28,285 nucleotides of DNA from Methanobacteriota archaeon (GCA_034658995.1 JAYEGG010000347.1:1-28285), one strand, 5' to 3'. Positions 1 to 28,285 are shown, counted from the stretch's first letter. Notes: generated from the letters alone by a model not told the origin. Numbers and translations: made by a program.

Positions 1-262
1 CATCTATGTTTCCATCCTCAACACTCTGCACCTTCAGGACGTCCGGATTATGGATGAGATTAAACTGCCCGCTGTTCAGACCGTTAACCTCTGTCACATC
101 TATTGTGACCTCGAACGTATCTTCTGACACGTATTCGGGTGCGGTGATGGTGACATTGGCGTCTGCGTCAGGGTCGATCTCAGCCTCATCGCCTGCTGCC
201 GTGCATGTCATGAGCAGGGTTGCGAGTACGATTAATACTATCTTCTTTGCGATATAATTTAT
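1..262 (-). CDS. Secreted cohesin-domain protein, 5' part only (runs off the left edge)
   Basis: Manual minus-strand translation: INYIAKKIVLIVLATLLMTCTAAG-DEAEIDPDADANVTITAPEYVSEDTFEVTIDVTEVNGLNSGQFNLIHNPDVLKVQSVEDGNID. This is a signal peptide followed by a cohesin-like beta pattern (F-x-V-T-I-D-V..L-x-S-G-Q-F-x-L..P-x-V-L-x-V..G). Start uncertain: ATA at 262 after a GAGGT RBS, or GTG at 295. Confidence 0.8.
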   Translation of the reverse strand, partial: MNYIAKKIVLIVLATLLMTCTAAGDEAEIDPDADANVTITAPEYVSEDTFEVTIDVTEVNGLNSGQFNLIHNPDVLKVQSVEDGNID

Positions 263-315
263 TTTGATTACCTCATTAACATAATCTTCATACACACATC
301 CAAACCTTCGTGATT

Positions 316-1266
316 TCACACCGACCCAGCCCCCCAGAGCATCATAATCACAGCGAAATCGCTCACTGCAATTGACAAAAACAACGCAATCGCCACCCTT
401 AGCCCAAGTTTCGAGCCAAAGAATGCGACGTTGTACGGTATCAGCGTGTGGAAGATCTCGAAGAGATTGTATATGAACATCCCGACGATGAGCCCCATGA
501 ATGCATCCGTCAAACCGAGTCCGTTCACGATTAGCTGTTGTGCCATTGAGAAGGCGACAATGATGTTGAACGCGCCTGTGATTGCGATTGGCATCACTTC
601 AGGCTGCAATGGGAAGACCGCTGCTACCGGGCGGAGCAATTGATTTACGTAATCCATCAGATCGCTGTTCACAAGAATGTAGAGCAGAAACACCACTGGA
701 ACAAGGATCTTAAATACTGTTACAGCCATCCCGAGGCTCTCATGGAATGCATCCTTTATTCCCACTCTGAAATTCGTCTTTTCAACGGGGTGTTCGTACC
801 CGGAATCCTTGAAATTCCGGGGGAGTCGTATCATGCTGTAGCCGATACCGATAGTCGTCTGCACGATGCCGATTAATAGCCATACCACAAGGAAATAGAG
901 TCCGTTTCTCACTCCAAAGAGTCCGATTGCGATCGGTCCTGTGAAGAAGAAGACATACCATATCATCACAGGCAGTCCTCCTGCAAGTATCGCGGTTATG
1001 ACCTGCCGGTCACCGCCGAGCATGCCGTTTTTGTAGAATCCGGATAGTGTCGGGAGCGAGGATGTGATGTTGACTGCACACATCAGAAAGTAGAACGAGC
1101 AGCACTTCGGAAGCCTGCACACCTTTGTGAGCGGATCAAAGACGAACCCGAGTCTCAGCACCCACTGCCATCGTGTGGCAGCAGATGCGAGGAATAGCCC
1201 GATGTATGCGAGAAGTGCCACCCAGAATGTGAAGATGGCTCCGTCAACGATTGTTCCCGAATCCAT
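316..1266 (-). CDS. Multi-pass membrane protein, Gate/nucleoside-recognition domain family
   Basis: 316 aa with many hydrophobic segments in two similar halves; GGTGA RBS; overlaps the end of the upstream K-like gene. Family call is by overall resemblance only. Confidence 0.6.
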   Translation of the reverse strand: MDSGTIVDGAIFTFWVALLAYIGLFLASAATRWQWVLRLGFVFDPLTKVCRLPKCCSFYFLMCAVNITSSLPTLSGFYKNGMLGGDRQVITAILAGGLPVMIWYVFFFTGPIAIGLFGVRNGLYFLVVWLLIGIVQTTIGIGYSMIRLPRNFKDSGYEHPVEKTNFRVGIKDAFHESLGMAVTVFKILVPVVFLLYILVNSDLMDYVNQLLRPVAAVFPLQPEVMPIAITGAFNIIVAFSMAQQLIVNGLGLTDAFMGLIVGMFIYNLFEIFHTLIPYNVAFFGSKLGLRVAIALFLSIAVSDFAVIMMLWGAGSV

Positions 1267-2404: not shown

Positions 2405-3972
2405 TCTTGCCTCCAGACGTCGCTTACAGTCTCTTCCCAGCATTTCCTGCAGTGCAGCGTCTCTGTGAGGCACGGGAAGCGCCAGCCATCGATCGGATAA
2501 TCGTAGAACAGGAGTCGCCTATCAGACCGTCTGCCATTAACTTTCCCTGCAAGCGCCCGTGCAAGCGTTGTGATCATTGAATATGATATCCTGAAGGACG
2601 AGTACCCGTAAAAATCCGGGTTTATCGCCGGTATTCCATTGTGCTCATAAAACATCGCCCGTTCATTGTTATCCGTGAGGGTGCTGATAATCGCAAGGTC
2701 CACACCTTTAGCCGCGTTGACCTCGTCGGGCGCATCCAGATTGATTGCAACCTCACTTATCCCGAGTTCATTCGCACGTTTCGCAAGTTCATCCGCAAGC
2801 TCTGCTGTGTGCTCCTTCTTTGTTCCGAACCGTTCGAGCCATTCGGTATTGATGAATAGCTTCTTGACGGCAACTCCGATGAACTCAAGAATCTTGAGAT
2901 ACTCAATTGAGACCGGCATAGGAACCGCTACGAGAGAGAAGGTCTTGTTAGTAAATGTTCGTCTGATGTCGTCCAGTTCTGTATTCATGGTTTTTTTCGC
3001 ATCCTTTAGCATATCTTCGCACTCACCATCCAGGTTGAACTTCGATGCGATATCCCTGTAGAATTGTTCGATGCCCTCAAGCCCTGAGTACTTTACAGAT
3101 AGCGGATCGAAGAGATAATCGATTCCGTACTTTTCCTGCATGAATTGCGCAGATTTTTCGCTCCTGCGCATGAAATTGAGTTCCGCTGCGCTCATCCTTC
3201 TGATATCGCTCACAGAACAGCCCGGGAAGATGACGTTCACAGTGACGCCCATCCGCCCGAGCAGCACCGTTATCTCGTCGAGTTCCCCTTTCAGGTCCTC
3301 AAAATAGTGAAACCTCCCGAAGGTATCCAGATTTACCGAGTTTTCGATCGTATCCGCATCCTCGGTCAACTGCTCGATTAACGAGTACATCGCATCAAGC
3401 CTACCGCATCGCTCGATTCCGAAGGTGATCTCACCATCCTTCTTCCACGCATTGATCAGGTCTGTTGTAAACTCATCGATACAATCGCACCGGTCATCAT
3501 GCTCAAAGCCTGCCGAGGGTGTTGTGACGACCGCTGCATCCACCCGATCCTTCACACGTGACACCACGTTCTCGATATCATCCCCGATTATTGCGGGAAC
3601 GCACGAATTGACAACAGCGATCAATTCCGGTTTAACGCATCGATCCAGCTCTAAAATCGCTTTCTCGAGGGTCTCTTCTCCGCCGTACACGACATCAGTC
3701 TCGTTTAACTCGGTGCTGTAGACCCGCGGAGGATCTTTTCTGCCGAGCAGTTTCATCCGCAACGCATCGGTCGGAAGAAATCTCGGGAAGTATGCACAGC
3801 CCTCCGGGCTATGAACCAGAGCAACCGCATTCTCAATCTCGCCGACCGTGCATACAGCACCAAACATCTTGCAGTCGATGCTGTACTGGGTTGCCTGACT
3901 CAGCAGATTCGCATAATACATGCCCATAGTGTCAATCTTTGTGTTCATTCTTTCATCCATTCCTGTATTCAT
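2401..3972 (-). CDS. Nitrogenase component-1-like oxidoreductase, alpha/D-like subunit (D3)
   Basis: DCKMFGA, HSPEGC, STELNETDVVYGGE and NSCVPAIIGDD motifs. ATG 3972 follows a GGAGG RBS (ORF track starts at 3999). Confidence 0.9.
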   Translation of the reverse strand: MNTGMDERMNTKIDTMGMYYANLLSQATQYSIDCKMFGAVCTVGEIENAVALVHSPEGCAYFPRFLPTDALRMKLLGRKDPPRVYSTELNETDVVYGGEETLEKAILELDRCVKPELIAVVNSCVPAIIGDDIENVVSRVKDRVDAAVVTTPSAGFEHDDRCDCIDEFTTDLINAWKKDGEITFGIERCGRLDAMYSLIEQLTEDADTIENSVNLDTFGRFHYFEDLKGELDEITVLLGRMGVTVNVIFPGCSVSDIRRMSAAELNFMRRSEKSAQFMQEKYGIDYLFDPLSVKYSGLEGIEQFYRDIASKFNLDGECEDMLKDAKKTMNTELDDIRRTFTNKTFSLVAVPMPVSIEYLKILEFIGVAVKKLFINTEWLERFGTKKEHTAELADELAKRANELGISEVAINLDAPDEVNAAKGVDLAIISTLTDNNERAMFYEHNGIPAINPDFYGYSSFRISYSMITTLARALAGKVNGRRSDRRLLFYDYPIDGWRFPCLTETLHCRKCWEETVSDVWRQE

Positions 3973-4009
3973 TTGTATCAATCCCCTCCCAGGGGACATT
4001 TCTCACTCG

Positions 4010-4051
4010 CAAACTTTTCACCAAACTTTTCACAAAAGTTTGATCAAAAAC
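4010..4051. repeat. Perfect 9-bp hairpin with a 12-bp tandem duplication (REP-like or terminator-like)
   Basis: CAAACTTTT-CAC-AAAAGTTTG at 4022-4042; CAAACTTTTCAC repeated at 4010-4021 and 4022-4033. Confidence 0.6.
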
Positions 4052-4204
4052 TGGTCTCCGACCGGGGGCAGTTTTTACCCGATTTTTTGTGGAAAATAGC
4101 TGATTCTGATGGATTCTGTGGTTTTTTAGAGGATACCAAAAGAAGGGTTTTTTCATTCTTTGCGCCATCGCGTTCCTCTGATATATACGTGACACCGGCA
4201 TAAA

Positions 4205-4483
4205 CTGCGCCCTCGCGCCTTTGCGTTCTCGATTTAACGCGAAGGGGATCATCTCGGCCATCACGTCCTTCATGTTGTGGTCATCCAACCAACCATCAAA
4301 AAAGCTCAATTTGTGGCGGTGCGAAGTATAACGCAAGGTCGCAAAGTCGCAGAGGCGCAAAGACGATAGAGTGACGCCTGCAATCACTACAACGTGATGA
4401 CTACCGATAGCGATCACAGAGGACAATAGAGAGCACAGAGTCTTTAGATCGATCCTCTGTGTCCCTCTGTGCGCCATGTGGTT
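4205..4483. repeat. Cluster of REP-like imperfect palindromes
   Basis: 4205-4227 ctgcgccctcgcgcctttgcgtt is inversely related to 4330-4362 aacgcaaggtcgcaaagtcgcagag. 4415-4440 cacagag..cacagag pairs with 4455-4483 ctctgtg..ctctgtg..gtggtt. Confidence 0.6.
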
Positions 4484-4551
4484 GTATTTCCTAATGACAT
4501 TATTTATGTCAGTCGTGGTGTTGCGCATCCAACTGACCATTACAGAAAAAT

Positions 4552-5268
4552 TCACTTTTTCGCACCTATCAAAAAATAGCCATTACTATCGATATCGCCA
4601 CACATTCTTGAGAGAACGCCGCTTATCCTCTCTTTTATTGAGGTGTCAACATGCATAATCTCGCATCCGCAGTCTTCCAGAACTTCCCTTGCGAAGTCCA
4701 GGTTGATTTTGGGGTTGCCCCCGGTCGTCCCTCGTATCACCTTCCAGGTCTGGGCGTGATCCGCACCATTGAGGCGTTTGATTGCGCTGTATGCACGATA
4801 GATCAGTTTTGTTCGAAGGGCCATCGCATATTTGGTCTGCTTCCGGTCAACCTCGAGTATGGCGATCGTGCCGTCCTTTTTTGTGACTCTCACCATCTCT
4901 CGCATCGCCTCTTCAGGGTCTGGAACCGGCCAGAGCGCAAACTTGCAGAGTGTGCCATCAAAGACCTGATCCTTATACGGAATTTGCCCGCTATCGGCAT
5001 GCACCGCGGAAATATCGTTACCTGATTCCTTCGCCCGCACCTGCACCCGGTCCAGCATCGACCTTGAGAAATCGAGCGAATGGACCCGAAACTGCGTTGA
5101 GAGCGGAAGGGAGATTGATCCGGCGCCGCAGCCAACATCAAGAAGCGTGCCGCCCTCGTTAAAGAGATCCCGCACGGCTGCCACGTAGACATCATCCCGT
5201 ATCCACAACCGTCTCGTGATCTTCTTTGAATCGTAGCTGTCAACGAGAGCGTCCCATGGGGATGTCAT
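4552..5268 (-). CDS. Class I SAM-dependent methyltransferase (UbiE/Methyltransf_11-like)
   Basis: Motif I LLDVGCGAG, LDFS acidic motif, FDGTLC and AMREMVRV; ATGA overlap with the upstream methyltransferase. Confidence 0.9.
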   Translation of the reverse strand: MTSPWDALVDSYDSKKITRRLWIRDDVYVAAVRDLFNEGGTLLDVGCGAGSISLPLSTQFRVHSLDFSRSMLDRVQVRAKESGNDISAVHADSGQIPYKDQVFDGTLCKFALWPVPDPEEAMREMVRVTKKDGTIAILEVDRKQTKYAMALRTKLIYRAYSAIKRLNGADHAQTWKVIRGTTGGNPKINLDFAREVLEDCGCEIMHVDTSIKERISGVLSRMCGDIDSNGYFLIGAKK

Positions 5269-6023
5269 CGCTTTTCACCATTGATAAGGAAGATCAGTTC
5301 GCCGTATCCGGTGATCTTCTGCATGAGTCTTGCAAGTCTTGTTGAGACGCGATCAACGATTGAATAATCAACATCGTCCACCGCAATACCGCAATCTTCG
5401 AGCCAGCCCCTGATCTTCACGGATGAGGTGTCGATTTTATGATACTTTCTCATCTCCTTAAAATGCCGGTTCGGATCTCTTCCGGTTCGGGTCTTGTAGT
5501 AAAATCCCTGAACCCTGTAAAACGGCGTTCCGATGATTTTCTGCCGGAGTGTCGGTTTGTTGCCCTCGTACCAGTCACCTTCGACGATGACGATCTTCTT
5601 CTTTGCAACCCGTACCATCTCCGAAATTCCGTGCTTTGGATTCGGGAGTGGCCAGACCGCATACCGACATATCACGGCATCGAAGCTATCATCCTTAAAC
5701 GGCATATTCTGGGTATCTGCATTGACAATCTCGGGATCCACTTGCATCTCGTGCTTTCGAACCGTCATCTGCTGTAGCATCTTTCCGGAGAAATCAAGAG
5801 ACGTCACATCGAACTCCTTTGATAGCGGGAGCGACAGTGCGCCTGCGCCGCAGCCAACATCAAGAATCTTCTTGCAACCAGCGATTCTTGGTACTATCTC
5901 TTTTGTCCAGGTCTCGGGACTGCTGTGGTACCACTTCCGGTTCTTAAGATCGTACTCGGGTGCGAGCTTGCCCCAGCATTCCGCAATCGTCTTCACATCA
6001 GTCATATCAGTCATAGCAGTCAC
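5265..6023 (-). CDS. Class I SAM-dependent methyltransferase (paralog of 4552-5268)
   Basis: ILDVGCGAG, SLDFS, PFKDDSFDAVIC and ISEMVRV motifs; start may be a nearby downstream ATG such as 6014. Confidence 0.9.
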   Translation of the reverse strand: MTAMTDMTDVKTIAECWGKLAPEYDLKNRKWYHSSPETWTKEIVPRIAGCKKILDVGCGAGALSLPLSKEFDVTSLDFSGKMLQQMTVRKHEMQVDPEIVNADTQNMPFKDDSFDAVICRYAVWPLPNPKHGISEMVRVAKKKIVIVEGDWYEGNKPTLRQKIIGTPFYRVQGFYYKTRTGRDPNRHFKEMRKYHKIDTSSVKIRGWLEDCGIAVDDVDYSIVDRVSTRLARLMQKITGYGELIFLINGEKR

Positions 6024-18997: not shown

Positions 18998-20338
18998 CTA
19001 CGGTGCAGGATAGACATACACTCCAGTGTAGTCCAAACCGTGAAACTTCTTGAGCCACTCGCCATGCACCTCTATCGGGTCAATCTCGCTGAACAGATCC
19101 GGCTGGAGGCATTTCGCCATGTAAAGGACGTAGATACTCGAATGAATCCCGCCCGCAGCATTGCAGATCATGTAGACATCACCATTCGTAACTGCGGTCG
19201 TGCTGTCCCAGTCAGTGCTGCTCATGAACATATCCCGCACTGTTTCCATTGAACTTGCGTCCTCGACACCGTAGCCGCACTCAACGAAACCCGCGTAACC
19301 CGGATATACGTCCATCACGAATGCTTCGGGATCGTTTCCGATGATCGCCTCTGTGTCCACCTGCTGGTAGCCCGTAATACTTCCGAATGCGTTGATGCCA
19401 CCGCTTCGCAGGATGCGGTTGTTGCCACTCGTTCCCGCACATGCAACGTAACATGGAGGCGCCTCATCTGAAGCTGCTCTGATGCCTGCTCTCTCTCGCA
19501 CTATGTCCTCTTCCGGCAGAAACGTGCCTGGTGGACATGGGCAGTAAACCCCGTACGCAGTCTTTGGCTTATCATCCTCCGGAATCTCTGATACGATCTC
19601 GTCTATTTTGGCGTACAACTCCTCCTCGAACGTGATAAGCTCAACAGATACCTCCTGCTTATTCACCAGGAGTCCCAGAACCCCGATCTCTGCAGGATAC
19701 TTATCCGGTTCATCCAGATCGGTCATGAGCATCGGTATGTCAGCATCAGCCAGTTGCTCCTCGTACTCAGGATAGTATGAGCGGAAATACGTGGAAGCAA
19801 TGACAACGTCAGGATCCAGACTTATCACCTTCTCAATGTCCATGGAACTTGAGTACTGCCCGATCTCCTCCGTATCCTTGATGAGTTCTGCGATCTCACC
19901 CACCTTCTTTGTGAATCCGTCAACGCCAACGACCGTATCCCCCATTCCAAAGATGCAGAGCGCCTCGCAGGCATAGCAGCTAGCTGTTACCACACGTTCG
20001 ATCGGCATCGCGAGTGTCAGCGGCTCCTCGACGACATCCGGTGGTGTGCCGATATACTGGAATATGGTGATCTCCTTTTCCTTCCCGAGAATGGTAAGTT
20101 CGATCTGCGTTACATCCTGCATGTTGATCTTGCCGTCGTACTTCGCGTCCGATAGTTCTGTCTGGTCACGGTACTCGAGGATGATCAGTTCGGTGTAGGT
20201 GACGTCCTGCATGTTGATTGTGTCATCCTCGTTTGCGTTGCCGAAGACGCCGAGCGTGTAGTCTGATGCTGCTGCCGGCAGTGCAAGCAGAAGCATCATA
20301 GTTACTCCAAATATTATTGTGTTCGTTTTCATGTTCAT
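18998..20338 (-). CDS. Dockerin-fused class III (BtuF/FecB-like) substrate-binding protein SBP1, Cys-rich
   Basis: Signal peptide ending PAAA-S, duplicated dockerin loops, MPIERVV, EKVISLDPDVVI and AVTNGDVY. Start could be 20332, 20338 or 20362. Confidence 0.9.
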   Translation of the reverse strand: MNMKTNTIIFGVTMMLLLALPAAASDYTLGVFGNANEDDTINMQDVTYTELIILEYRDQTELSDAKYDGKINMQDVTQIELTILGKEKEITIFQYIGTPPDVVEEPLTLAMPIERVVTASCYACEALCIFGMGDTVVGVDGFTKKVGEIAELIKDTEEIGQYSSSMDIEKVISLDPDVVIASTYFRSYYPEYEEQLADADIPMLMTDLDEPDKYPAEIGVLGLLVNKQEVSVELITFEEELYAKIDEIVSEIPEDDKPKTAYGVYCPCPPGTFLPEEDIVRERAGIRAASDEAPPCYVACAGTSGNNRILRSGGINAFGSITGYQQVDTEAIIGNDPEAFVMDVYPGYAGFVECGYGVEDASSMETVRDMFMSSTDWDSTTAVTNGDVYMICNAAGGIHSSIYVLYMAKCLQPDLFSEIDPIEVHGEWLKKFHGLDYTGVYVYPAP

Positions 20339-20361
20339 TATCTCCCTTTTATTCATCTTCA

Positions 20362-21615
20362 TCAACTCTCCACAAATGGTGGATACACAAAGACGCCTTT
20401 CTCACCCAGGTCGTAGTCGATGCCGCAGAAATCATCGATATAGGTCTGATGCATCGCCTCCGGATCCAGGTCATCAAATAAGGTGGGGTGTAACCACTTT
20501 GCCATATAGGCAACTCCAATAGAATTGCTTGATCTGTCACAGATGTCGGGACATATCAGGTACACCCTACCATTCTGCACTGCCGAAATACCGTCAAAGC
20601 CGGTGCGGCTCATGATATTGTCTCTCACCGCTTTCATCTCAGTGGAGTCGTCTTCATCGTAGCCATTGGAAACTTTGCTACCTGATACTACCTTTACAAT
20701 AACGTCAGGATTCTGATCGATTATCCATTCAGGGTCAACTCCTGCTATTGTCCCTTCTCCGGGTAAATCCGCACCAATATTTATCCCACCAGCCATCTCG
20801 CACATCGGATGAGTCCCTGAACGGCTGGTGCGAGCTTTGTAGTCGCTGCAGCACTCAATGTACACGCGTGGCTTCTCTTCCTCCGATATCCCTCCTACCA
20901 CCTCTTCTATGGGATCCGTGCAATCGTGGTAAAAGTTGATGAGTTCCTCTGCCTCGTCCGTCTTCCCGATGATGTATCCCTGCTCTCGCAGCTGTACATC
21001 CCTTGTCAAGAGTTTGCAGTTCGAAAAACCACCAACCGCTATACCCAGTATTTCAGGCGTATCTCCGAAGTACTTTGGTTTCAGTGCCGAGGTGTATGCG
21101 AAGACGAGGTCAGGATCAAGACTGAGTACCACTTCCCAGTCCGGATGGAAGGATGATCCGACCGTCGGCAGGAGAGCGATATCCGGGAAGAATACGGTAT
21201 CCTTTGCGAGATACGTTGTCACGCCAACTATCAGCTCCTTTCCTCCGAGGCTCCTCCCAACCTCCGCAGAATCGGTGCTGAGCATGACGATTCTCTCGAT
21301 TGGTTTCTCGACCGTTACTGTTCTTTCGGCGTTGTCGATGAACGTCATCTCCAACTCTCTCCCGAGTATGATCAGTTCGATCTGCGTTACGTCCTGCATG
21401 TTGATCTTGCCGTCGTACTTGCCGTCAGCAAGCTCTGTCTGGTCACGGTACTCGAGGATGATCAGTTCGGTGTAGGTCACATCCTGCATGTTTATCGTGT
21501 CGTCCTCGTTCGCGTTTCCGAAGACGCCGAGCGTGTAGTCGGATGCTGCTGCAGAGAGCGCGAGCAAAAGCAGCATAGTTATTCCAAGTACTATTGTGTT
21601 TGCTTTCATATTCAC
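20362..21615 (-). CDS. Dockerin-fused class III substrate-binding protein SBP2
   Basis: Signal peptide, dockerin, KPIERIV, EVVLSLDPDLV, EWIIDQNPDVIV and AVQNGRVY; ATG 21609 is the likely start. Confidence 0.92.
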   Translation of the reverse strand: MNMKANTIVLGITMLLLLALSAAASDYTLGVFGNANEDDTINMQDVTYTELIILEYRDQTELADGKYDGKINMQDVTQIELIILGRELEMTFIDNAERTVTVEKPIERIVMLSTDSAEVGRSLGGKELIVGVTTYLAKDTVFFPDIALLPTVGSSFHPDWEVVLSLDPDLVFAYTSALKPKYFGDTPEILGIAVGGFSNCKLLTRDVQLREQGYIIGKTDEAEELINFYHDCTDPIEEVVGGISEEEKPRVYIECCSDYKARTSRSGTHPMCEMAGGINIGADLPGEGTIAGVDPEWIIDQNPDVIVKVVSGSKVSNGYDEDDSTEMKAVRDNIMSRTGFDGISAVQNGRVYLICPDICDRSSNSIGVAYMAKWLHPTLFDDLDPEAMHQTYIDDFCGIDYDLGEKGVFVYPPFVES

Positions 21616-21637
21616 TACCTACTTTTTATATATCTCA

Positions 21638-22882
21638 TCAATTCTCCACAAATGGCGGGTATATGAAGACACCACGTTCCTTCACGTCGAAATCCAACCC
21701 CTGAAAGTCCACATCACGCTGGTGTACCTCGGTTGGATCCAGGTCACTGAACCGCTCAGGATGGACGACCTTCATGATGTATGGGATGCCATTAATATAA
21801 CTGTAACCACATGCTATACTGCAGGATATGACGTAAACACGACCGTTCTCCACTGCTTTGACGTTAGACAGCTCAGGACGGTTCATGATCGCATCTCGTG
21901 CAGCCACCATGTCCTGGGAGTCATCAAGCTCATAGCCGCTCTTTCCGGAGGACATCATCTTGATGATGATGTCCGGATTCTGTTCCACCACCCATTCAGG
22001 GTCTACCACCGCACAACGATCCGGTATCGTATCATACGCAACGTTTTTTCCACCGGCGATCTCGCAGATCATGTTGGGGTACGAGGTCACACCACATGCC
22101 TTGTAGTCTTTCATCGCTTCTATGTACACCCTCGGTTTATCCTCTTCAGGAATCTCCGCGGTCATTTCGGTTAGATCGGCGACATTATCATGGAGAACAC
22201 CGGTATATGTGTAAGCATCCTCCACCGCACCAAATATGTATCCCAGTTTCGCAATTTCTTCTTCATTCAGGTCTTCCGGTGTTGGTTTTACAGGCATCGC
22301 AAATGGAATGCCTGCTGCTTCACATGTCTCTGCAAATTTGTCACCCCAGCCACATGTAGGCGAACCTGCTATCACAAGATCGGGATTGAGTGCAAACATC
22401 TTCTCAAAGTCCGGAGGATAGCCACCGATGCTCATGCTTTCATCCAGTTCCGGGAAGAACACTTTGCGATCGATCGCATACTTGCATATTCCAACCAGCG
22501 TATCTCCTGCGTTTATCGCCCGCATCAGGGCATAAGTCGTCGAGGGTCCGATGATGACTCGCTCAAGTGGTTTATTGATCGTCACCGCCTCTTCGCGAAG
22601 GTCGGTAAATGTGAGTTCCTTCTCTTTTCCGAGAATGACAAGCTCGATCTGCGTTACATCCTGCATGTTGATCTTGCCGTCGTACTTTGCGTCCGAGAGT
22701 TCTGTCTTGTCACGGTACTCGAGGATGATCAGCTCGGTGTACGTCACATCCTGCATGTTTATCGTGTCGTCCTCGTTCGCGTTGCCGAAGACGCCGAGCG
22801 TGTAGTCTGATGCTGCTGCCGGCAGTGCAAGCAGAAGCATCATAGTTACTCCAAGTAGTATTGTGTTCGTTTTCATGTTCAT
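21638..22882 (-). CDS. Dockerin-fused class III substrate-binding protein SBP3
   Basis: Signal peptide, dockerin, EKMFALNPDLVI, EWVVEQNPDIII and AVENGRVY; AGGAGG RBS. Confidence 0.92.
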   Translation of the reverse strand: MNMKTNTILLGVTMMLLLALPAAASDYTLGVFGNANEDDTINMQDVTYTELIILEYRDKTELSDAKYDGKINMQDVTQIELVILGKEKELTFTDLREEAVTINKPLERVIIGPSTTYALMRAINAGDTLVGICKYAIDRKVFFPELDESMSIGGYPPDFEKMFALNPDLVIAGSPTCGWGDKFAETCEAAGIPFAMPVKPTPEDLNEEEIAKLGYIFGAVEDAYTYTGVLHDNVADLTEMTAEIPEEDKPRVYIEAMKDYKACGVTSYPNMICEIAGGKNVAYDTIPDRCAVVDPEWVVEQNPDIIIKMMSSGKSGYELDDSQDMVAARDAIMNRPELSNVKAVENGRVYVISCSIACGYSYINGIPYIMKVVHPERFSDLDPTEVHQRDVDFQGLDFDVKERGVFIYPPFVEN

Positions 22883-23000
22883 TCCCTCCTTGTGGTTGTA
22901 TTCTGTGTGCGCTACACTGATTCTCCGCAGACAAGAGAATTGCAGGTCGCGTATTTTTCTGGTTTATCCGACCAGTTTCACAATCGGTATTGTGTTACTC

Positions 23001-24038
23001 CTATTTAACTTGATGCCCGGTGTGGTCGGTGGCAGGGGGATAACAGGTATCAGGAGCAAGATATTCTCCAAATTCTTCGGAGCAATGTTCCCTTAGGTAA
23101 TTCCTCGCCGCATGACAGAGATGACATTCATCATAATATGCGGGGTCAGGTTCAAAACCACGTTCCACAGCAAGCTCTTTCAGCCCCAGGGCTCCTTTTT
23201 CATGGAGTGCGCTGATGATCGGATTCGGGTCGCTGAAATAGCGCGTAAATATCTCGGACATACTCTCTTTGTAAAGATTTCCCAGGGACACCCCAAAGCA
23301 GCCATCGACAAATCCCTGTGGGTCGATTAAAATACTGTCCGGGCATTTTGGGCGTAGTACGCCGATATTAAACTCCCAGCACTTGCGATCCAACCGTTTG
23401 TTGACGCGAAGTTCCTCGGGCATGATGAAATTAGTCCTGCCGTGGGCTCCAGCCACCGTGGAAAAAGCATAGTAGCCCGAATCGTAGATCTTCTGCACGA
23501 TATCCTGGGTTTGCCTGTTAAACTTACAGTCATAACTCTGGTAGCCCAGGTACGTAGCTATCGCATAAGTAGAAAAACTCATTTCGCCCATAGATCGCCC
23601 AACACCGGGAGTTTCCGTTTTCAGTATGTTAAGTACATTTTCCAGGGGAATAGTTTTCTGGTGGAAACTATCTGCACTTACCCCGATGCTGTTGACACCC
23701 AGTTCACGCAGGCGGTCAAGTTTTTGTCGGACCACTTCAACGTCATCAGCCCATGCTCCGTTTGTGGAAATGCTGAAATAGTCGATACCATGTTTCTTGC
23801 ATCGCTTGATACACTCCACAATAACATCATAATGGTAAAATGGCTCTCCACCTGCAAAATGGACTGTACTGAGGTTATGCTGACCGGATATACTTTCCAG
23901 TGCATCATCGATCAAATCCGGATCGATCGGTGCATGGTTGGGGTTGCGTTGAAAATAAAAACAGTGATCACAACTGCAATTGCAGTCCATGGTGACCAGT
24001 ATCACAACAGTCTTCAGGTTACTTAGTGATCCCTTCAT
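23001..24038 (-). CDS. Radical SAM protein with a C-terminal Cys-rich (SPASM/twitch-like) region
   Basis: CNCSCDHC (CxxxCxxC), FAGGEPF, STNG, then C..C..IDPQGFVDGC..ECHLC. ATG 24038 overlaps the upstream stop (ATGA). Confidence 0.9.
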   Translation of the reverse strand: MKGSLSNLKTVVILVTMDCNCSCDHCFYFQRNPNHAPIDPDLIDDALESISGQHNLSTVHFAGGEPFYHYDVIVECIKRCKKHGIDYFSISTNGAWADDVEVVRQKLDRLRELGVNSIGVSADSFHQKTIPLENVLNILKTETPGVGRSMGEMSFSTYAIATYLGYQSYDCKFNRQTQDIVQKIYDSGYYAFSTVAGAHGRTNFIMPEELRVNKRLDRKCWEFNIGVLRPKCPDSILIDPQGFVDGCFGVSLGNLYKESMSEIFTRYFSDPNPIISALHEKGALGLKELAVERGFEPDPAYYDECHLCHAARNYLREHCSEEFGEYLAPDTCYPPATDHTGHQVK

Positions 24039-24859
24039 TTTTCCCACCACATAACCGCACTCTTAGTCGTGCTCTCTCTACAATAAATGCCATCCACAGC
24101 ATTCTTTACGATATAATCCTTGATCATTTTCTTAATCCTCGGCGTAATTTCCGTATAAAGATCAAACAGGTACTCATAATAATCTATAGCGTCATTCACC
24201 GATTTCTCAAAGGTATACGCCGAATCTATGACGTTTACGTTCGCATAGATTCCCATGGTGTACAGGATATTATAGATGTAGATGTAGTCTATCCCAAAAT
24301 TGTACTCCGCATCCATGATCCTGGACCACATCTCGCGATCAAGATCATCTGTAAGTCCTGCGTGAAGAATCACACAACAATAGCGTCTTGATACATCATG
24401 CACTCGCGTCAATTGCTTGCCGATATCATCAAACTGCCACAGGACATTTGACGTAATAACAAGGTCGAAGCTCTCCCTGATTTCGGAATCATCAACCTCC
24501 TGCCATGTCTTATTCACTGTCTCGATATTCGACAGCCCCGCTTCAACCGCACTCTCTTCCAGAACGTTGAGCATTCCCTTTGAGGGGTCCAGTGCAACTA
24601 CTCTGTCAACCAGTTTTGCGAGGGGTATAACGAGCGTTCCAGGACCGCAACCGATATCAAGAACCCTGAAATCAGGTTTTATGATCTCTTTTAGTACGTG
24701 TACCATCTGCTCGCCGTACTTAAAACCCTCCCTCTTTATCGTGTCGCTATATTCCGCTGCCCCTCGATCCCAGAGATCTACTCCGACGTCTTTACGATAT
24801 TTCGCCAGGACAGAGTCCTTTCGTGCATCTATCCAGAGTTGTTCCCAGTTTATTTCCAT
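24035..24859 (-). CDS. Class I SAM-dependent methyltransferase (same subfamily as 13129-14004)
   Basis: VLDIGCGPG, ALDPSKGM, NKTWQEV and FDLVITSN motifs. Confidence 0.92.
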   Translation of the reverse strand: MEINWEQLWIDARKDSVLAKYRKDVGVDLWDRGAAEYSDTIKREGFKYGEQMVHVLKEIIKPDFRVLDIGCGPGTLVIPLAKLVDRVVALDPSKGMLNVLEESAVEAGLSNIETVNKTWQEVDDSEIRESFDLVITSNVLWQFDDIGKQLTRVHDVSRRYCCVILHAGLTDDLDREMWSRIMDAEYNFGIDYIYIYNILYTMGIYANVNVIDSAYTFEKSVNDAIDYYEYLFDLYTEITPRIKKMIKDYIVKNAVDGIYCRESTTKSAVMWWEK

Positions 24860-24909
24860 TTAATATGACCTATTGTTCCTTTGTTTTGTATGTGTTAGCT
24901 GAAATGAAG

Positions 24910-24982
24910 AACCACGAGATTTCACGAGATTAACACAAGACACTGGTAGTTTTTCTTGTGGAAATCCGTGCAATCTCATAGT
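24910..24982. repeat. REP-like imperfect palindrome with ~10-nt periodic arms
   Basis: aaccacgagat-ttcacgagat-taacacaaga ... tcttgtggaaatccgtgcaatctc. Confidence 0.5.
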
Positions 24983-25004
24983 CATCTAAACACGTACCTT
25001 GTTT

Positions 25005-26285
25005 TCAGTCTTCTATTGGCGGATACACAAACACGCCATGCTCATTTAAGTCGTAATCTATCCCCAGAAATTCTGTCAGGTATTCCTGGTGCATTGCCTG
25101 TGGGTCAAGGTCACAAAAGAGCTCTGGATGGAACGTCTTCGCGAAGTATGCGATGCCCAGTGGGTATGGCTGTCCGTAGCTGAAGGTGGTACTGAGCATC
25201 TGCACCTTTTTGTTTTTCACGGCGTTAACCTCCGCTAACGAGGGATGATTCAAAACTTCCTCTCTCTGTGCAATTATTTCAGCCACATCATCCTCAGCAT
25301 AACACTCCCACATACCAGGGTAATAATACCTAACAATAACATCCGGATTCTGCATAATCACCCACTCAAGGTCCACATAATACTCGCCAGACGGCAGCTC
25401 CAGATCCTCTGCCACAAATAGTCCACCGGCTGTTTCGACAGAATAGTGTTGTGTAGAACCTCCCAGAGGGGTGTACCATTCGTTGGTACTTAACTCGCTA
25501 AACGTCCCGTAAAGCACCCGCGGTTTTTCGTCATCCGAGAGTTTGTCTGTTCCAGCTTTGACGATGTCAATAATTCCTTCATACCACTCAATAAACTCCT
25601 TTGCCTCACCTCTACTATCAACAATGTATCCAAGTTTTGTTATCTCTTCGCTCAGGTGATCTGGTGTCGGATAACCAAATTCGAGACGGGGTATTGGTAG
25701 GTCCGAGTCAGCAGACTCAAGTGTATCCAGAACCGCATCATGGTAAGATCCAGTACTTAAAATAACGAGATCTGGGCATAGATTCAACACCACCTCATAA
25801 TCAGGTATATACGGTCCAATGCACGGTAGATCGCAGAGTTCACCGAAGTATTCCTCAGGAGCATTTGTGATATAATCAACCACACCAACCAGCTTATCCG
25901 CCGCATTAAGCGTACGCAGTGGGTCGACGACATAACAGTTGACGGCAATAATACGTTTTACCGGCTTCTCCACAGTAACAATTCTATCCGTGGAATCAAG
26001 AACCGTGATCTCCTTCTCCTTCCCGAGAATGACAAGCTCGATCTGCGTTACGTCCTGCATGTTGATCTTACTGTCATACTTTGCGTCCGATAGTTCTGTC
26101 TGGTCACGGTACTCGAGGATGATCAGTTCGGTGTAGGTCACATCCTGCATGTTTATCGTGTCGTCCTCGTTTGCGTTACCGAAGACGCCAAGCGTGAAGT
26201 CGGATGCTGCTGCCGGGAGTGAGAGCAAGAGCAAGAGCAGCAAACTTATGGTTATCCTAATAACTATACTTGTCTTCATATTCAT
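25005..26285 (-). CDS. Dockerin-fused class III substrate-binding protein SBP4
   Basis: Signal peptide, dockerin, KPVKRII, EWVIMQNPDVIV and AVKNKKV. Confidence 0.92.
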   Translation of the reverse strand: MNMKTSIVIRITISLLLLLLLSLPAAASDFTLGVFGNANEDDTINMQDVTYTELIILEYRDQTELSDAKYDSKINMQDVTQIELVILGKEKEITVLDSTDRIVTVEKPVKRIIAVNCYVVDPLRTLNAADKLVGVVDYITNAPEEYFGELCDLPCIGPYIPDYEVVLNLCPDLVILSTGSYHDAVLDTLESADSDLPIPRLEFGYPTPDHLSEEITKLGYIVDSRGEAKEFIEWYEGIIDIVKAGTDKLSDDEKPRVLYGTFSELSTNEWYTPLGGSTQHYSVETAGGLFVAEDLELPSGEYYVDLEWVIMQNPDVIVRYYYPGMWECYAEDDVAEIIAQREEVLNHPSLAEVNAVKNKKVQMLSTTFSYGQPYPLGIAYFAKTFHPELFCDLDPQAMHQEYLTEFLGIDYDLNEHGVFVYPPIED

Positions 26286-26304
26286 TACCGTCCCTATAAT
26301 TCAG

Positions 26305-27594
26305 TCAGTTCTCCTCAGTCCACGGCGTGGGATACGCATACACACCCTGATACTCTACACCAAGGAACGTCTCAAACCACTCTTTGTGAATTGCAGCAGG
26401 GTCCACATCCTCAAAGAGCGTGGGGTGGAGATACTTAGCCAGGTAGGAGAGCCAGACAGACTGGTGTGTCGACGAGGCATCGGAACTGATAAAGTACACC
26501 CTATCATCCCTGACCGCATCGATATGATCAAAGCCGAAATAATTCATTATGTACTCAGTTCTTACCTCGTCAACCGGACCGGTATCCGTTATATCATATC
26601 CAAGAGCTTCGCCAGTAGCGCTACTCCATGCCATTGCAATGATTACCTCGGGGTTTCGCACGATGATCTCTTCAGCATCCACGCCTACGTATCCATCCAC
26701 ATCAGCGAAGATGTTGGTGCCACCACAGAGTTCGATGTTATTGTGGTGGGCTGTACCGCCGCCTGCGACATGCGTGGGATCGCCGTAATAACTAACACCC
26801 AGACAATAGTACGCTTTAGTCCTCTCTTCGGGCTCCAGGTCCTTCACTCGCTCTTTTATTATGTCGGTGTGATCTTTCTCAAAACTGATAAGCTCTTCAG
26901 CCCGCTCTCTATTCCCCAGCAACCATCCGAGGTTCCGGATCTCGTAAGGGTGCTTCTCAGGCTGGCTGAAATCCGCATGAACCAGCGGAATTCCGGCAGC
27001 GTTCAATTGTTCATCAGTCTCAGGAGAATATGTGTACGAGTAAGTAAGTACGATATCAGGATTCAGTTCCAGGACTTTTTCCATATCAAAGCCGCCGTGG
27101 GTGATATCATGCCCTGTTCCAACCGAAGGCGTGTCTCCTAATAAAGTTCTGGTCTCTCCTCTCATCTTTGACCCCTCGATGACTCCAACGATCTTATCCG
27201 CAGCTTCGAATGCGCAAACTGTTTCAGCAGCGAAATTGCTCAAAACCACCATCCGTTCTACCGGCATAGGCACCGTTACTGGTTTTTCAGTGAGGTCCGG
27301 AGGATATCCCATATACTGAAGCAGCGTTAACTCCTTCTCCTTCCCGAGTATGACAAGCTCTATCTGCGTTACATCCTGCATGTTAATCTTGCCGTCGTAC
27401 TTTGCGTCCGATAGTTCTGTCTGGTCACGGTACTCGAGGATTATCAGCTCGGTGTACGTCACATCCTGCATGTTTATCGTGTCGTCCTCGTTTGCGTTAC
27501 CGAAGACGCCAAGCGTGAAGTCGGATGCTGCTGCCGGCAGTGCAAAGAGCAAGAGAACCGCGACAATTCCAGGCAATATCATGCTTATTCTCAT
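26305..27594 (-). CDS. Dockerin-fused class III substrate-binding protein SBP5
   Basis: Signal peptide, dockerin, MPVERMV, EKVLELNPDIVL and AVRDDRVY. Confidence 0.92.
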   Translation of the reverse strand: MRISMILPGIVAVLLLFALPAAASDFTLGVFGNANEDDTINMQDVTYTELIILEYRDQTELSDAKYDGKINMQDVTQIELVILGKEKELTLLQYMGYPPDLTEKPVTVPMPVERMVVLSNFAAETVCAFEAADKIVGVIEGSKMRGETRTLLGDTPSVGTGHDITHGGFDMEKVLELNPDIVLTYSYTYSPETDEQLNAAGIPLVHADFSQPEKHPYEIRNLGWLLGNRERAEELISFEKDHTDIIKERVKDLEPEERTKAYYCLGVSYYGDPTHVAGGGTAHHNNIELCGGTNIFADVDGYVGVDAEEIIVRNPEVIIAMAWSSATGEALGYDITDTGPVDEVRTEYIMNYFGFDHIDAVRDDRVYFISSDASSTHQSVWLSYLAKYLHPTLFEDVDPAAIHKEWFETFLGVEYQGVYAYPTPWTEEN

Positions 27595-27616
27595 TATATG
27601 TCACCTCAAACGCTGT

Positions 27617-28285
27617 TCAACTTGCAAGCGGGGGGTGCACAAACGCACCCTCCTCTGTTACGTCGAAGTCTATGCCACAGAATCGATCCACGTATTCCTG
27701 CTGGATCACCTGTGGATCCATATCAGCAAATACTTCCGGATGGAACCACTTTGCCAGGTACACAAGACCCGCAGGCATCGCAGGAGTGTACAGGATATCA
27801 TTGTTGATCACGTGTACACGACCGTTCTTTACAGCTCCGGTATTGTCAAATCCCGGAACATCCAATATCTTATCGTATTCTATAACGATCTCACTATCAT
27901 CATCCGCACCCCAGCCACCCTTGCTGACACCTCCGGCTATCACTTCCGGATTCTGCTCCAGAACCCATTCCACACTCACCTTCGGAAATGTGTCAACTCC
28001 GAGATCCGCACCGATGTTACAGCCCCCTACTCTCGCACACTGCTGACCCATTCCGGTTCCTTCAGTGTATGTCTTCATATCGGTGTCTGTTATGCCGTAG
28101 GTGCTGATTAAGAATACTCTGGGTTTGTCATCCTCTGAGATCTGCGAGACCCGGTCGTCTATCTCGTCAACGTATCCGTCGTACCAGTCGAGATATTCGT
28201 CTGCGGCATCTCGATCTCCGAGCAGGTATCCAAGCTTATTCATCTCTTCTCTGAGCGTCTCGGGTTTGTAGAGGTCAAGACGAAC
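27617..28285 (-). CDS. Class III substrate-binding protein SBP6, C-terminal part (5' end outside the window)
   Basis: Frame open to the edge (VRLDLYKPETLREEMNKLGY..); EWVLEQNPEVI, AVKNGRVH and GAFVHPP. Whether it has a dockerin cannot be seen. Confidence 0.9.
   Translation of the reverse strand, partial: VRLDLYKPETLREEMNKLGYLLGDRDAADEYLDWYDGYVDEIDDRVSQISEDDKPRVFLISTYGITDTDMKTYTEGTGMGQQCARVGGCNIGADLGVDTFPKVSVEWVLEQNPEVIAGGVSKGGWGADDDSEIVIEYDKILDVPGFDNTGAVKNGRVHVINNDILYTPAMPAGLVYLAKWFHPEVFADMDPQVIQQEYVDRFCGIDFDVTEEGAFVHPPLAS

Follow-up and report, generated by a model that had tools for sequence, protein, structure and literature searches.

A contig-truncated cohesin gene at an archaeal FecCD-type importer locus and its family of candidate membrane-anchored docking posts for dockerin-tagged SBPs

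The left end of the window, a stretch of 28,285 nt that is the whole of contig C347 of a 2.1-Mb MAG (G000; 452 contigs, about 75% complete), carries the 5' end of a real cohesin gene that is cut off by the contig end. The best explanation of this gene, to which we give a probability of about 60%, is that it encodes a membrane-anchored single-cohesin docking post for dockerin-tagged SBPs, which would be held either directly or via an adaptor. Our analysis establishes the cohesin identity of the gene, the architecture of its family, the conserved neighbourhood of this family and the dockerin nature of the tag found on the SBPs of the locus. On this reading, the cohesin gene belongs with the genes for nitrogenase-like reductases, methyltransferases and FecCD importers of a locus which probably handles a tetrapyrrole or metal chelate.

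The cohesin gene at the contig end and its family

All major genes of the window, the cohesin gene included, lie on the minus strand (Table 1). An open frame runs from GTG 295-293 off the left contig end (window 2-295, 98 codons visible); this GTG and the position at which the family starts (262-260) lie 20 nt and 53 nt, respectively, past the stop codon of the Gate-domain gene. The product consists of a basic and hydrophobic leader, KKIVLIVLATLLMTCTAAG, followed by DEAEIDPDADA and then by NVTITAPEYVSEDTFEVTIDVTEVNGLNSGQFNLIHNPDVLKVQSVEDGNID. The five relatives compared all start with ATG, 6-8 nt past a conserved GAGGTG, and the ATA found at this position in the window is also present in the Logan contigs of three runs of the same study. 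A reading of LLMTC in the leader as a lipobox was ruled out, the Cys being absent in the C74 and L031 orthologues. Elsewhere in the window, a 200-codon ORF (3953-4555, minus strand) separates the methyltransferase genes from the third NifD-like gene, whose start it overlaps.

Table 1. Coordinates of the features of the window discussed in the text
Feature	Position (nt)	Strand	Remarks
Gate-domain membrane protein gene, upstream of the cohesin gene	316..1266	-	stop codon 316-318
Visible cohesin-anchor gene, conserved start position to contig end	2..262	-	87 codons, no stop or frameshift
ATA codon at the family ATG start position	260..262	-	ATG in 5/5 compared relatives
GAGGT, Shine-Dalgarno-like, conserved, upstream of the family start position	270..274	-	
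Alternative in-frame GTG start	293..295	-	20 nt past Gate stop; as a start not conserved in relatives
Signal-peptide-like leader, INYIAKK IVLIVLATLLM TCTAAG	191..262	-	by eye; aligned with leaders of full-length relatives
Acidic spacer DEAEIDPDADA, between leader and cohesin	158..190	-	family-conserved
Cohesin module, first ~54 positions, cut by contig end	5..157	-	PF00963 positions 2-54 of 139
SBP5 dockerin tag	27343..27528	-	
Four other SBP tags	26022-26207, 22628-22813, 21361-21546, 20084-20269	-	
Five complete tagged Peripla_BP_2 SBP genes and one cut by the right contig end	18998..28285	-	

Since the window is a whole contig and no other contig of the assembly overlaps its left end, the gene has been cut by the assembly, and it is this truncation by the contig end that made the ORF track miss it. 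In the probable source run, a Logan contig extends the sequence leftwards by 99 nt, of which 30 nt keep the frame open (10 codons). The extended product, ..NIGDTEILFLTQ, agrees with the relatives through DTEI and diverges after it. At the junction, contig bases 1-3 read cat, whereas the Logan contig continues as ..gtcac/ctatg, a difference that is probably a contig-end artefact.

The visible fragment matches the Pfam Cohesin model PF00963 over nt 5-157 with 24.6 bits (cut-off 24.1; E 3.2e-5), a match limited only by the truncation, which leaves about 40% of the module. The same fragment scores 53.5 bits against a cohesin HMM built from the modules of G000 itself, a genome with at least 35 cohesin modules and at least 44 Dockerin_1 hits. 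It is 60% identical to a full-length paralogue of 306 aa encoded on contig C74, which itself reaches 37 bits against PF00963, and it shares 80-85% identity with the full-length proteins P0018, P0030 and P0031 where they overlap. A search of NCBIfam with the fragment and the C74 paralogue gave no hits. Relatives of 260-310 aa form at least 120 clusters, and close homologues carry the name 'cohesin domain-containing protein [Candidatus Methanogasteraceae archaeon]'.

The full-length relatives are composed, from N to C-terminal, of a signal peptide, an acidic spacer, one cohesin, a linker of about 70-100 residues rich in Thr, Pro, Ser and Ala, and a TM helix. Each full-length member of the clade (C74, L030, L031, L039, P0002-P0035 and others; 260-310 aa) carries exactly one cohesin. 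The AF2 model of the C74 paralogue (67 homologues) shows a β-sandwich at residues 55-198 (pLDDT 82-97) and, after disorder from 213 to 277, ends in a helix at 287-305 (pLDDT around 80). In a Foldseek search with this model, the top 50 hits are all cohesins, archaeal as well as cellulosomal, the best one being the Archaeoglobus fulgidus cohesin 2xdh (E 7.5e-8, TMt 0.73). At the level of the family, the model and these hits fit the complete nine-stranded jelly-roll of the cohesin domain. Because the relatives combine one cohesin with a TM anchor, we regard the family as one of anchors and not of scaffolds; a multi-cohesin, 'scaffoldin' reading is ruled out at the family level. We infer by comparison with these relatives that the missing remainder of the window copy is like theirs, TM anchor included.

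The C-terminal helix of the family has a near-invariant I-Y-S-L-V-G..A..Y pattern and a basic end of one or two residues; the C-termini read ..IPIYSLVGLFALIYAIIQFK and lack a PGF motif. Such a near-invariant IYSLVG helix with a short basic tail (I289-Y300 of P0001) is unusual for a plain membrane anchor, and the same feature is seen on contigs C74 (9239-11059) and C363 of G000. It may represent a sorting signal not yet described, or mediate a specific contact between TM helices.

In a tree of cohesin modules, the window fragment groups with P0030 and P0031 (support 100/97), and this group is nested in a clade of FecCD-linked anchors (support 99/97). The anchor clade stands apart from the PGF-CTERM-anchored cohesins and from the cohesins of dockerin-bearing scaffoldins.

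These results confirm what had been noticed in a preliminary description of the locus, namely a signal peptide and a cohesin-like domain on the strand of the Gate gene, 20-50 nt past its stop, in a gene missed by the ORF track. The frame at 2-295 on the minus strand bears this out, and the cohesin identity holds in the PF00963 search of the fragment and in the Foldseek comparison of the family model. The suggestion to extend the sequence leftwards yielded the ten further codons of the Logan contig and no overlapping contig in the assembly. As for a surface anchor, the full-length relatives provide a C-terminal TM helix, while PGF-CTERM, which had been named as one candidate, is absent from the family.

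Dockerin tags and importer operons

The SBP array at the right side of the window (18998..28285, minus strand) is interspersed with a methyltransferase gene and a radical SAM gene. Among its five complete SBPs, the N-terminal tags share 92-98% identity, while the remaining parts of the proteins share 28-40%. Searches with Pfam Dockerin_1 (PF00404) failed to recognize these tags: the best score among the window SBPs is 10.7 bits (E 0.64), below the cut-off of 22.9, and a genome-wide Dockerin_1 scan gave no match in the window. Despite this failure, the tags are shown to be dockerin homologues at the level of profile and sequence comparison. Each tag holds two repeats, NANEDDTINMQDVTYTELIIL and DAKYDGKINMQDVTQIELVIL, in a duplicated pattern of a Ca-loop plus helix, with segments of ~22 residues, and a tag profile run against the PDB finds dockerins as all of its eight best hits, across both repeats (1daq_A, the best with E 6e-4, 2mte, 2ccl_B and 1ohz_B among them). 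Moreover, the tag (62 aa) shares 63% identity with a dockerin that does reach the Pfam cut-off (36.5 bits) and belongs to the OppA-type SBP of contig C450. An AF2 model of a whole SBP is confident for the SBP domain and uninformative for the tag (residues 11-85, pLDDT below 50). The window SBPs match the PGF-CTERM SBP model TIGR04281 weakly, with 79 bits against a cut-off of 325.

Tag copies are present on at least 23 SBPs of G000 and number 8-52 in several other members of the archaeal family, with the maximum in G016; across the genomes counted, the tag-bearing ORFs are always about 410-450 aa long. The tag is 85-98% identical on the 23 SBPs of G000, where further copies lie on contigs C133, C144, C215, C57, C51, C219, C23, C193 and C168, and it is conserved to the same degree across genera, up to the 52 copies of G016. 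Conservation so far above that of the SBP bodies points to one shared binding partner, and the presence of the tag on 23 SBPs genome-wide means that this partner is not specific to the five SBPs of the window. The identity of the tags on divergent SBP bodies points to very strong constraint or to gene conversion acting on the tag.

The position of the anchor gene is conserved. In about 10 of the 14 loci examined it follows FecCD/ATPase or Gate genes of tetrapyrrole-type importer loci, as in L030, L031, L047, L048, L050, L051, L053 and L054. L047 and L048 share the order scaffoldin (dockerin plus cohesins), tagged SBP, FecCD, ATPase and anchor, past which lie a 2-cohesin TM protein and a DUF11/CARDB-like protein. 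In L053 the order is SBP, ABC, ChlD/I-like, CobN, FecCD, ATPase and, after 58 nt, anchor; in L054 two NifDK-like/NifH-like sets are followed by FecCD, ATPase and, after 60 nt, anchor. In L050 and L051 a Dockerin+NosD/β-helix protein stands between the FecCD genes and the anchor, in L031 (same contig as G003:C63) a second Gate-type gene precedes the anchor, and in L030 the genes FecCD, ATPase and FecCD come first and the anchor lies about 2 kb beyond them. In L049 and L052, the 1-2 kb upstream of the anchor are free of ABC genes.

Several features of these loci deserve mention in their own right. L054 (GCA_030609345.1, JAUWCK010000001.1, 1-9861), from another species, is a compact parallel of the window layout and the closest one. 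At L050:1-2830 and L053:920-6777, the FecCD-ATPase-anchor unit comes directly after chelatase genes of the CobN and ChlD/I types, in agreement with the tetrapyrrole/chelate theme of the nitrogenase-like reductases and methyltransferases of the window. Between the intact SBP gene and FecCD of L047, a 58-codon remnant (5840-6016) encodes the signal peptide of an SBP and the beginning of a tag (..LPAAASDFT..), followed by out-of-family sequence, and looks like a decayed SBP gene.

A sister clade of anchors closes Opp operons (G000:C363, G000:C374, G002:C48, G007:C70 and G012:C225), with the order OppA, OppB, OppC, OppD, OppF, anchor cohesin (273-303 aa, TM tail) and longer cohesin TM protein, and with intergenic gaps of 8-40 nt. 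The OppA proteins present on these contigs carry a C-terminal dockerin of the same INMQD type as the SBP tag. Opp/Nik-type operons ending in a module like that of the FecCD loci, in which a single TM-anchored cohesin is joined by a longer cohesin-bearing TM protein and by one of the DUF11/CARDB-like type, are found at L046:246-6879 (G000:C363), at L044:1-5857 (G000:C374) and in L055, L056 and L057. The cohesin subclades track the transporter class, FecCD-linked or Opp-linked, and the tag subtypes do likewise. Taken together, gene order in these genomes supports a conserved placement of the anchor, distal in dockerin-SBP/ABC loci, that is not the product of chance.

Another class of cohesin genes lies directly upstream of tagged SBP genes, in eight loci of seven genomes. 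These encode dockerin-bearing scaffoldins with 1-6 cohesins (directly upstream of the tagged SBP in G000:C51, G000:C450, L032, L034, L035, L036 and L038). In L032 and L034 the scaffoldin itself comes after a single cohesin with a PGF-CTERM anchor, and in G077 the gene directly before the SBP encodes a PGF-CTERM cohesin. A three-tier order recurs, consisting of a PGF-CTERM single cohesin, a scaffoldin (N-terminal canonical dockerin, 1-6 cohesins) and a tagged SBP, sometimes followed by FecCD and Gate: L032:395-5751, L034:4865-8309, L045 (G000:C226) and L044:6468-8379 (G000:C374). Furthermore, the direct upstream neighbour of the anchor in five loci (C74, L039, L031, L050 and L051) encodes a large protein in which a canonical dockerin at the N-terminus is combined with cohesins and NosD/β-helix repeats. 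The anchor cohesin may bind the dockerins of these NosD-type proteins or of the scaffoldins instead of the SBP tag.

Proposed function and alternative readings

Cells with a single membrane need to retain their SBPs at the surface, and the known solutions are lipid anchors, TM helices and sorting signals. The product of the window gene would be a type I membrane protein of an ANME-2c (Methanogasteraceae) single-cohesin anchor family. Together with one to three longer cohesin TM proteins and a DUF11/CARDB-like TM protein, the anchor gene forms one module; at FecCD-type importer loci, which are linked to tetrapyrrole or metal-chelate enzymes, this module comes directly behind the ATPase, permease or Gate genes. 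The extracellular cohesin is predicted to bind a dockerin in a Ca-dependent manner, and tagged SBPs would in this way be held near their permease, directly or via a dockerin-bearing adaptor scaffoldin. The functional link between the anchor cohesins and the tagged SBPs is drawn mainly from the conserved operon order; we infer the binding itself, and the identity of the partner, from such comparisons.

On a wider scale, we tentatively suggest, at slightly less than even odds, that ANME-2c use a cohesin-dockerin dock in place of lipid or TM anchoring of their importer SBPs. Two unrelated importer classes (FecCD/Peripla_BP_2 and Opp/SBP_bac_5) end in a TM-anchored cohesin module, and the hyper-conserved tag is N-terminal in one class and C-terminal in the other. 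The parallel divergence of anchor subclades and tag subtypes would then reflect class-specific docking, with the window gene as the FecCD-class dock of a tetrapyrrole/chelate salvage locus. If this is true, an operon-encoded cohesin-dockerin dock is a modular, exchangeable way to keep SBPs at the surface; it would explain why dozens of ANME-2c SBPs carry one near-invariant tag, and would give a testable function to many puzzling cohesin and dockerin genes of methane-oxidising archaea.

Whether the window copy still works is a separate question. In loci whose Gate protein is 93-94% identical to that of the window, the Gate-adjacent cohesin gene is dead in three ways. In the orthologue on contig C46 of G002 about 250 nt are inserted, an internal part is deleted, and the gene contains a premature stop besides frameshifts; the orthologue in L018 is frameshifted and truncated; and in L019 and L024 the cohesin gene is lost after about 16 codons. 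G002 nevertheless retains 12 tagged SBPs, and its paralogue on contig C230 is intact. The insertion in G002:C46 (L004:2541-2790) is AT-rich, with the terminal inverted repeats gacattccgc/gcggaatgtc and flanking ttaatc, and by its sequence looks like a MITE with a target-site duplication. Next to more distant Gate orthologues (54-59% identity), the following gene is another Gate gene or a nitrogenase-like gene. Counts by codon position and of synonymous and non-synonymous changes were powerless here, because the intact members of the family show the same near-uniform pattern as the window copy.

The preliminary description had placed the cohesin gene at the distal end of the dockerin-SBP locus, a position which recurs in the eight loci named above, and had taken the SBP modules for dockerins, as the PDB profile hits and the C450 dockerin confirm, though they score below the Pfam cut-off. 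It went on to propose a dedicated, direct cognate scaffold that displays the five SBPs of the locus as a cellulosome-like array. The shared strand and locus of cohesin and SBP genes speak for this proposal, as do the closest full-length relatives, which close compact SBP-FecCD-ATPase operons, and the way in which anchor subclades, like tag subtypes, follow the transporter class. The proposal is not supported, however, and we consider it improbable: the relatives carry one cohesin and not several, the tag is spread over 23 SBPs on many G000 contigs, the genes for multi-cohesin scaffoldins are found in other places, immediately before SBP genes, and the local orthologue is dispensable in close relatives. 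An indirect anchor is less easily dismissed, but still rather unlikely in our estimate. Here the cohesin would bind the canonical N-terminal dockerin of an adaptor whose own cohesins bind the SBP tags, in a two-tier assembly resembling the type I/type II interactions of cellulosomes; the adaptors would be the scaffoldins with 1-6 cohesins or the large cohesin-bearing NosD/β-helix proteins. The occurrence of dockerin-plus-cohesin scaffoldins directly upstream of tagged SBPs, the single operon shared by scaffoldin and anchor in L047, the Dockerin+NosD protein directly before the anchor in C74, L039, L031, L050 and L051, and the separation of scaffoldin, PGF-anchor and window-family cohesins into distinct clades are all in line with such an adaptor. 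Yet the Opp operons of L055-L057 contain a dockerin-OppA and an anchor and no scaffoldin, and no scaffoldin is near the anchor in L053 and L054, which suggests direct docking in both cases; moreover, the scaffoldins could be served by the PGF-CTERM cohesin anchors, which already adjoin them.

A decaying or silent pseudogene, with the C74 paralogue and other anchors supplying the function, if any, is a reading of the window copy that is compatible with the explanations at family level. It is suggested by the ATA in place of ATG at the conserved start, on which the contigs of three runs agree, by the three different inactivations of the Gate-adjacent gene in the nearest relatives, and by the departure from the family past ..DTEI. 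On the other hand, the 87 visible codons contain no stop or frameshift, a Shine-Dalgarno-like motif is retained, an in-frame GTG lies 11 codons upstream, and the codon-position pattern is the one seen between intact family members. We therefore hold a non-functional window copy to be a serious possibility, though the less probable side of the question; the copy is possibly impaired, with the paralogue on C74 as a back-up. Lastly, the family could have nothing to do with transport and serve adhesion, between cells or to a matrix, in ANME-SRB consortia; its adjacency to ABC genes would then be no more than inherited synteny. Adhesion roles for ANME cohesin/dockerin proteins are proposed in retrieved passages of published work (PMC5244752, PMC9012536), the module includes DUF11/CARDB-like proteins, and L049 and L052 have no ABC genes within 1-2 kb upstream of the anchor. 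But the same module closes the operons of two unrelated classes of ABC importers, with gaps of 8-60 nt, and it is exactly the SBPs of these two classes that carry dockerins, so that we regard adhesion as the most doubtful of these readings. The docking post for tagged SBPs, reached directly or through an adaptor, is the reading that we retain.

Relation to known systems

The passages retrieved from Chadwick et al. 2022 (PMC9012536) describe scaffoldin-like proteins of ANME with a dockerin and up to five cohesins, note dockerins on periplasmic SBPs of ANME, and state that the partners need to be determined experimentally. Timmers et al. 2017 (PMC5244752) counted cohesin and dockerin domains and proposed roles in adhesion. 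The general idea is not new, since the concept of dockerin-bearing SBPs on cohesin scaffolds in ANME has already been published (PMC9012536), and the truncated gene of the window belongs to a family that already bears the annotation 'cohesin domain-containing protein'. The gain of the present work is evidence at the operon level and not a new kind of system: the anchor family and its operon-level link do not appear in the retrieved passages on ANME cohesins, those of PMC9012536 included, nor does the retrieved literature state that two transporter classes use an operon-terminal module in parallel.

The non-cellulosomal cohesin of A. fulgidus (2xdh) has the same fold as the model of our family and also comes from a non-cellulolytic archaeon. 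Compared with the archaeal cohesins and with the ANME proteins in the retrieved passages of Chadwick et al., the window family is distinguished by a single cohesin with its own C-terminal TM anchor and by its place at the end of FecCD-type operons. PGF-CTERM cohesins and SBPs (TIGR04281) likewise tether ABC binding proteins to the surface of an S-layer archaeon, and PGF-CTERM cohesin anchors occur in the same genomes, upstream of the scaffoldin and tagged-SBP genes. The window family differs from these anchors in the absence of a PGF motif and in its separate cohesin clade, and the window SBPs carry a dockerin tag in place of the C-terminal sorting signal of PGF-CTERM SBPs. A further parallel is offered by the anchoring scaffoldins of C. 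(Acetivibrio) thermocellum, of the SdbA and OlpA/OlpC type, in which one cohesin is also joined by a linker to a cell-surface anchor; the cohesins of OlpA and OlpC (3ul4, 4dh2) are among the structural hits of the family model, at a sequence identity of 12-22%. The presumed role, fixing dockerin-bearing partners to the cell, would be shared by both. The two types differ in the means of anchoring, a C-terminal TM helix (IYSLVG) in the window family and SLH domains or sortase in thermocellum, and in their cargo, which consists of hydrolases in thermocellum and presumably of transport binding proteins in the family described here.
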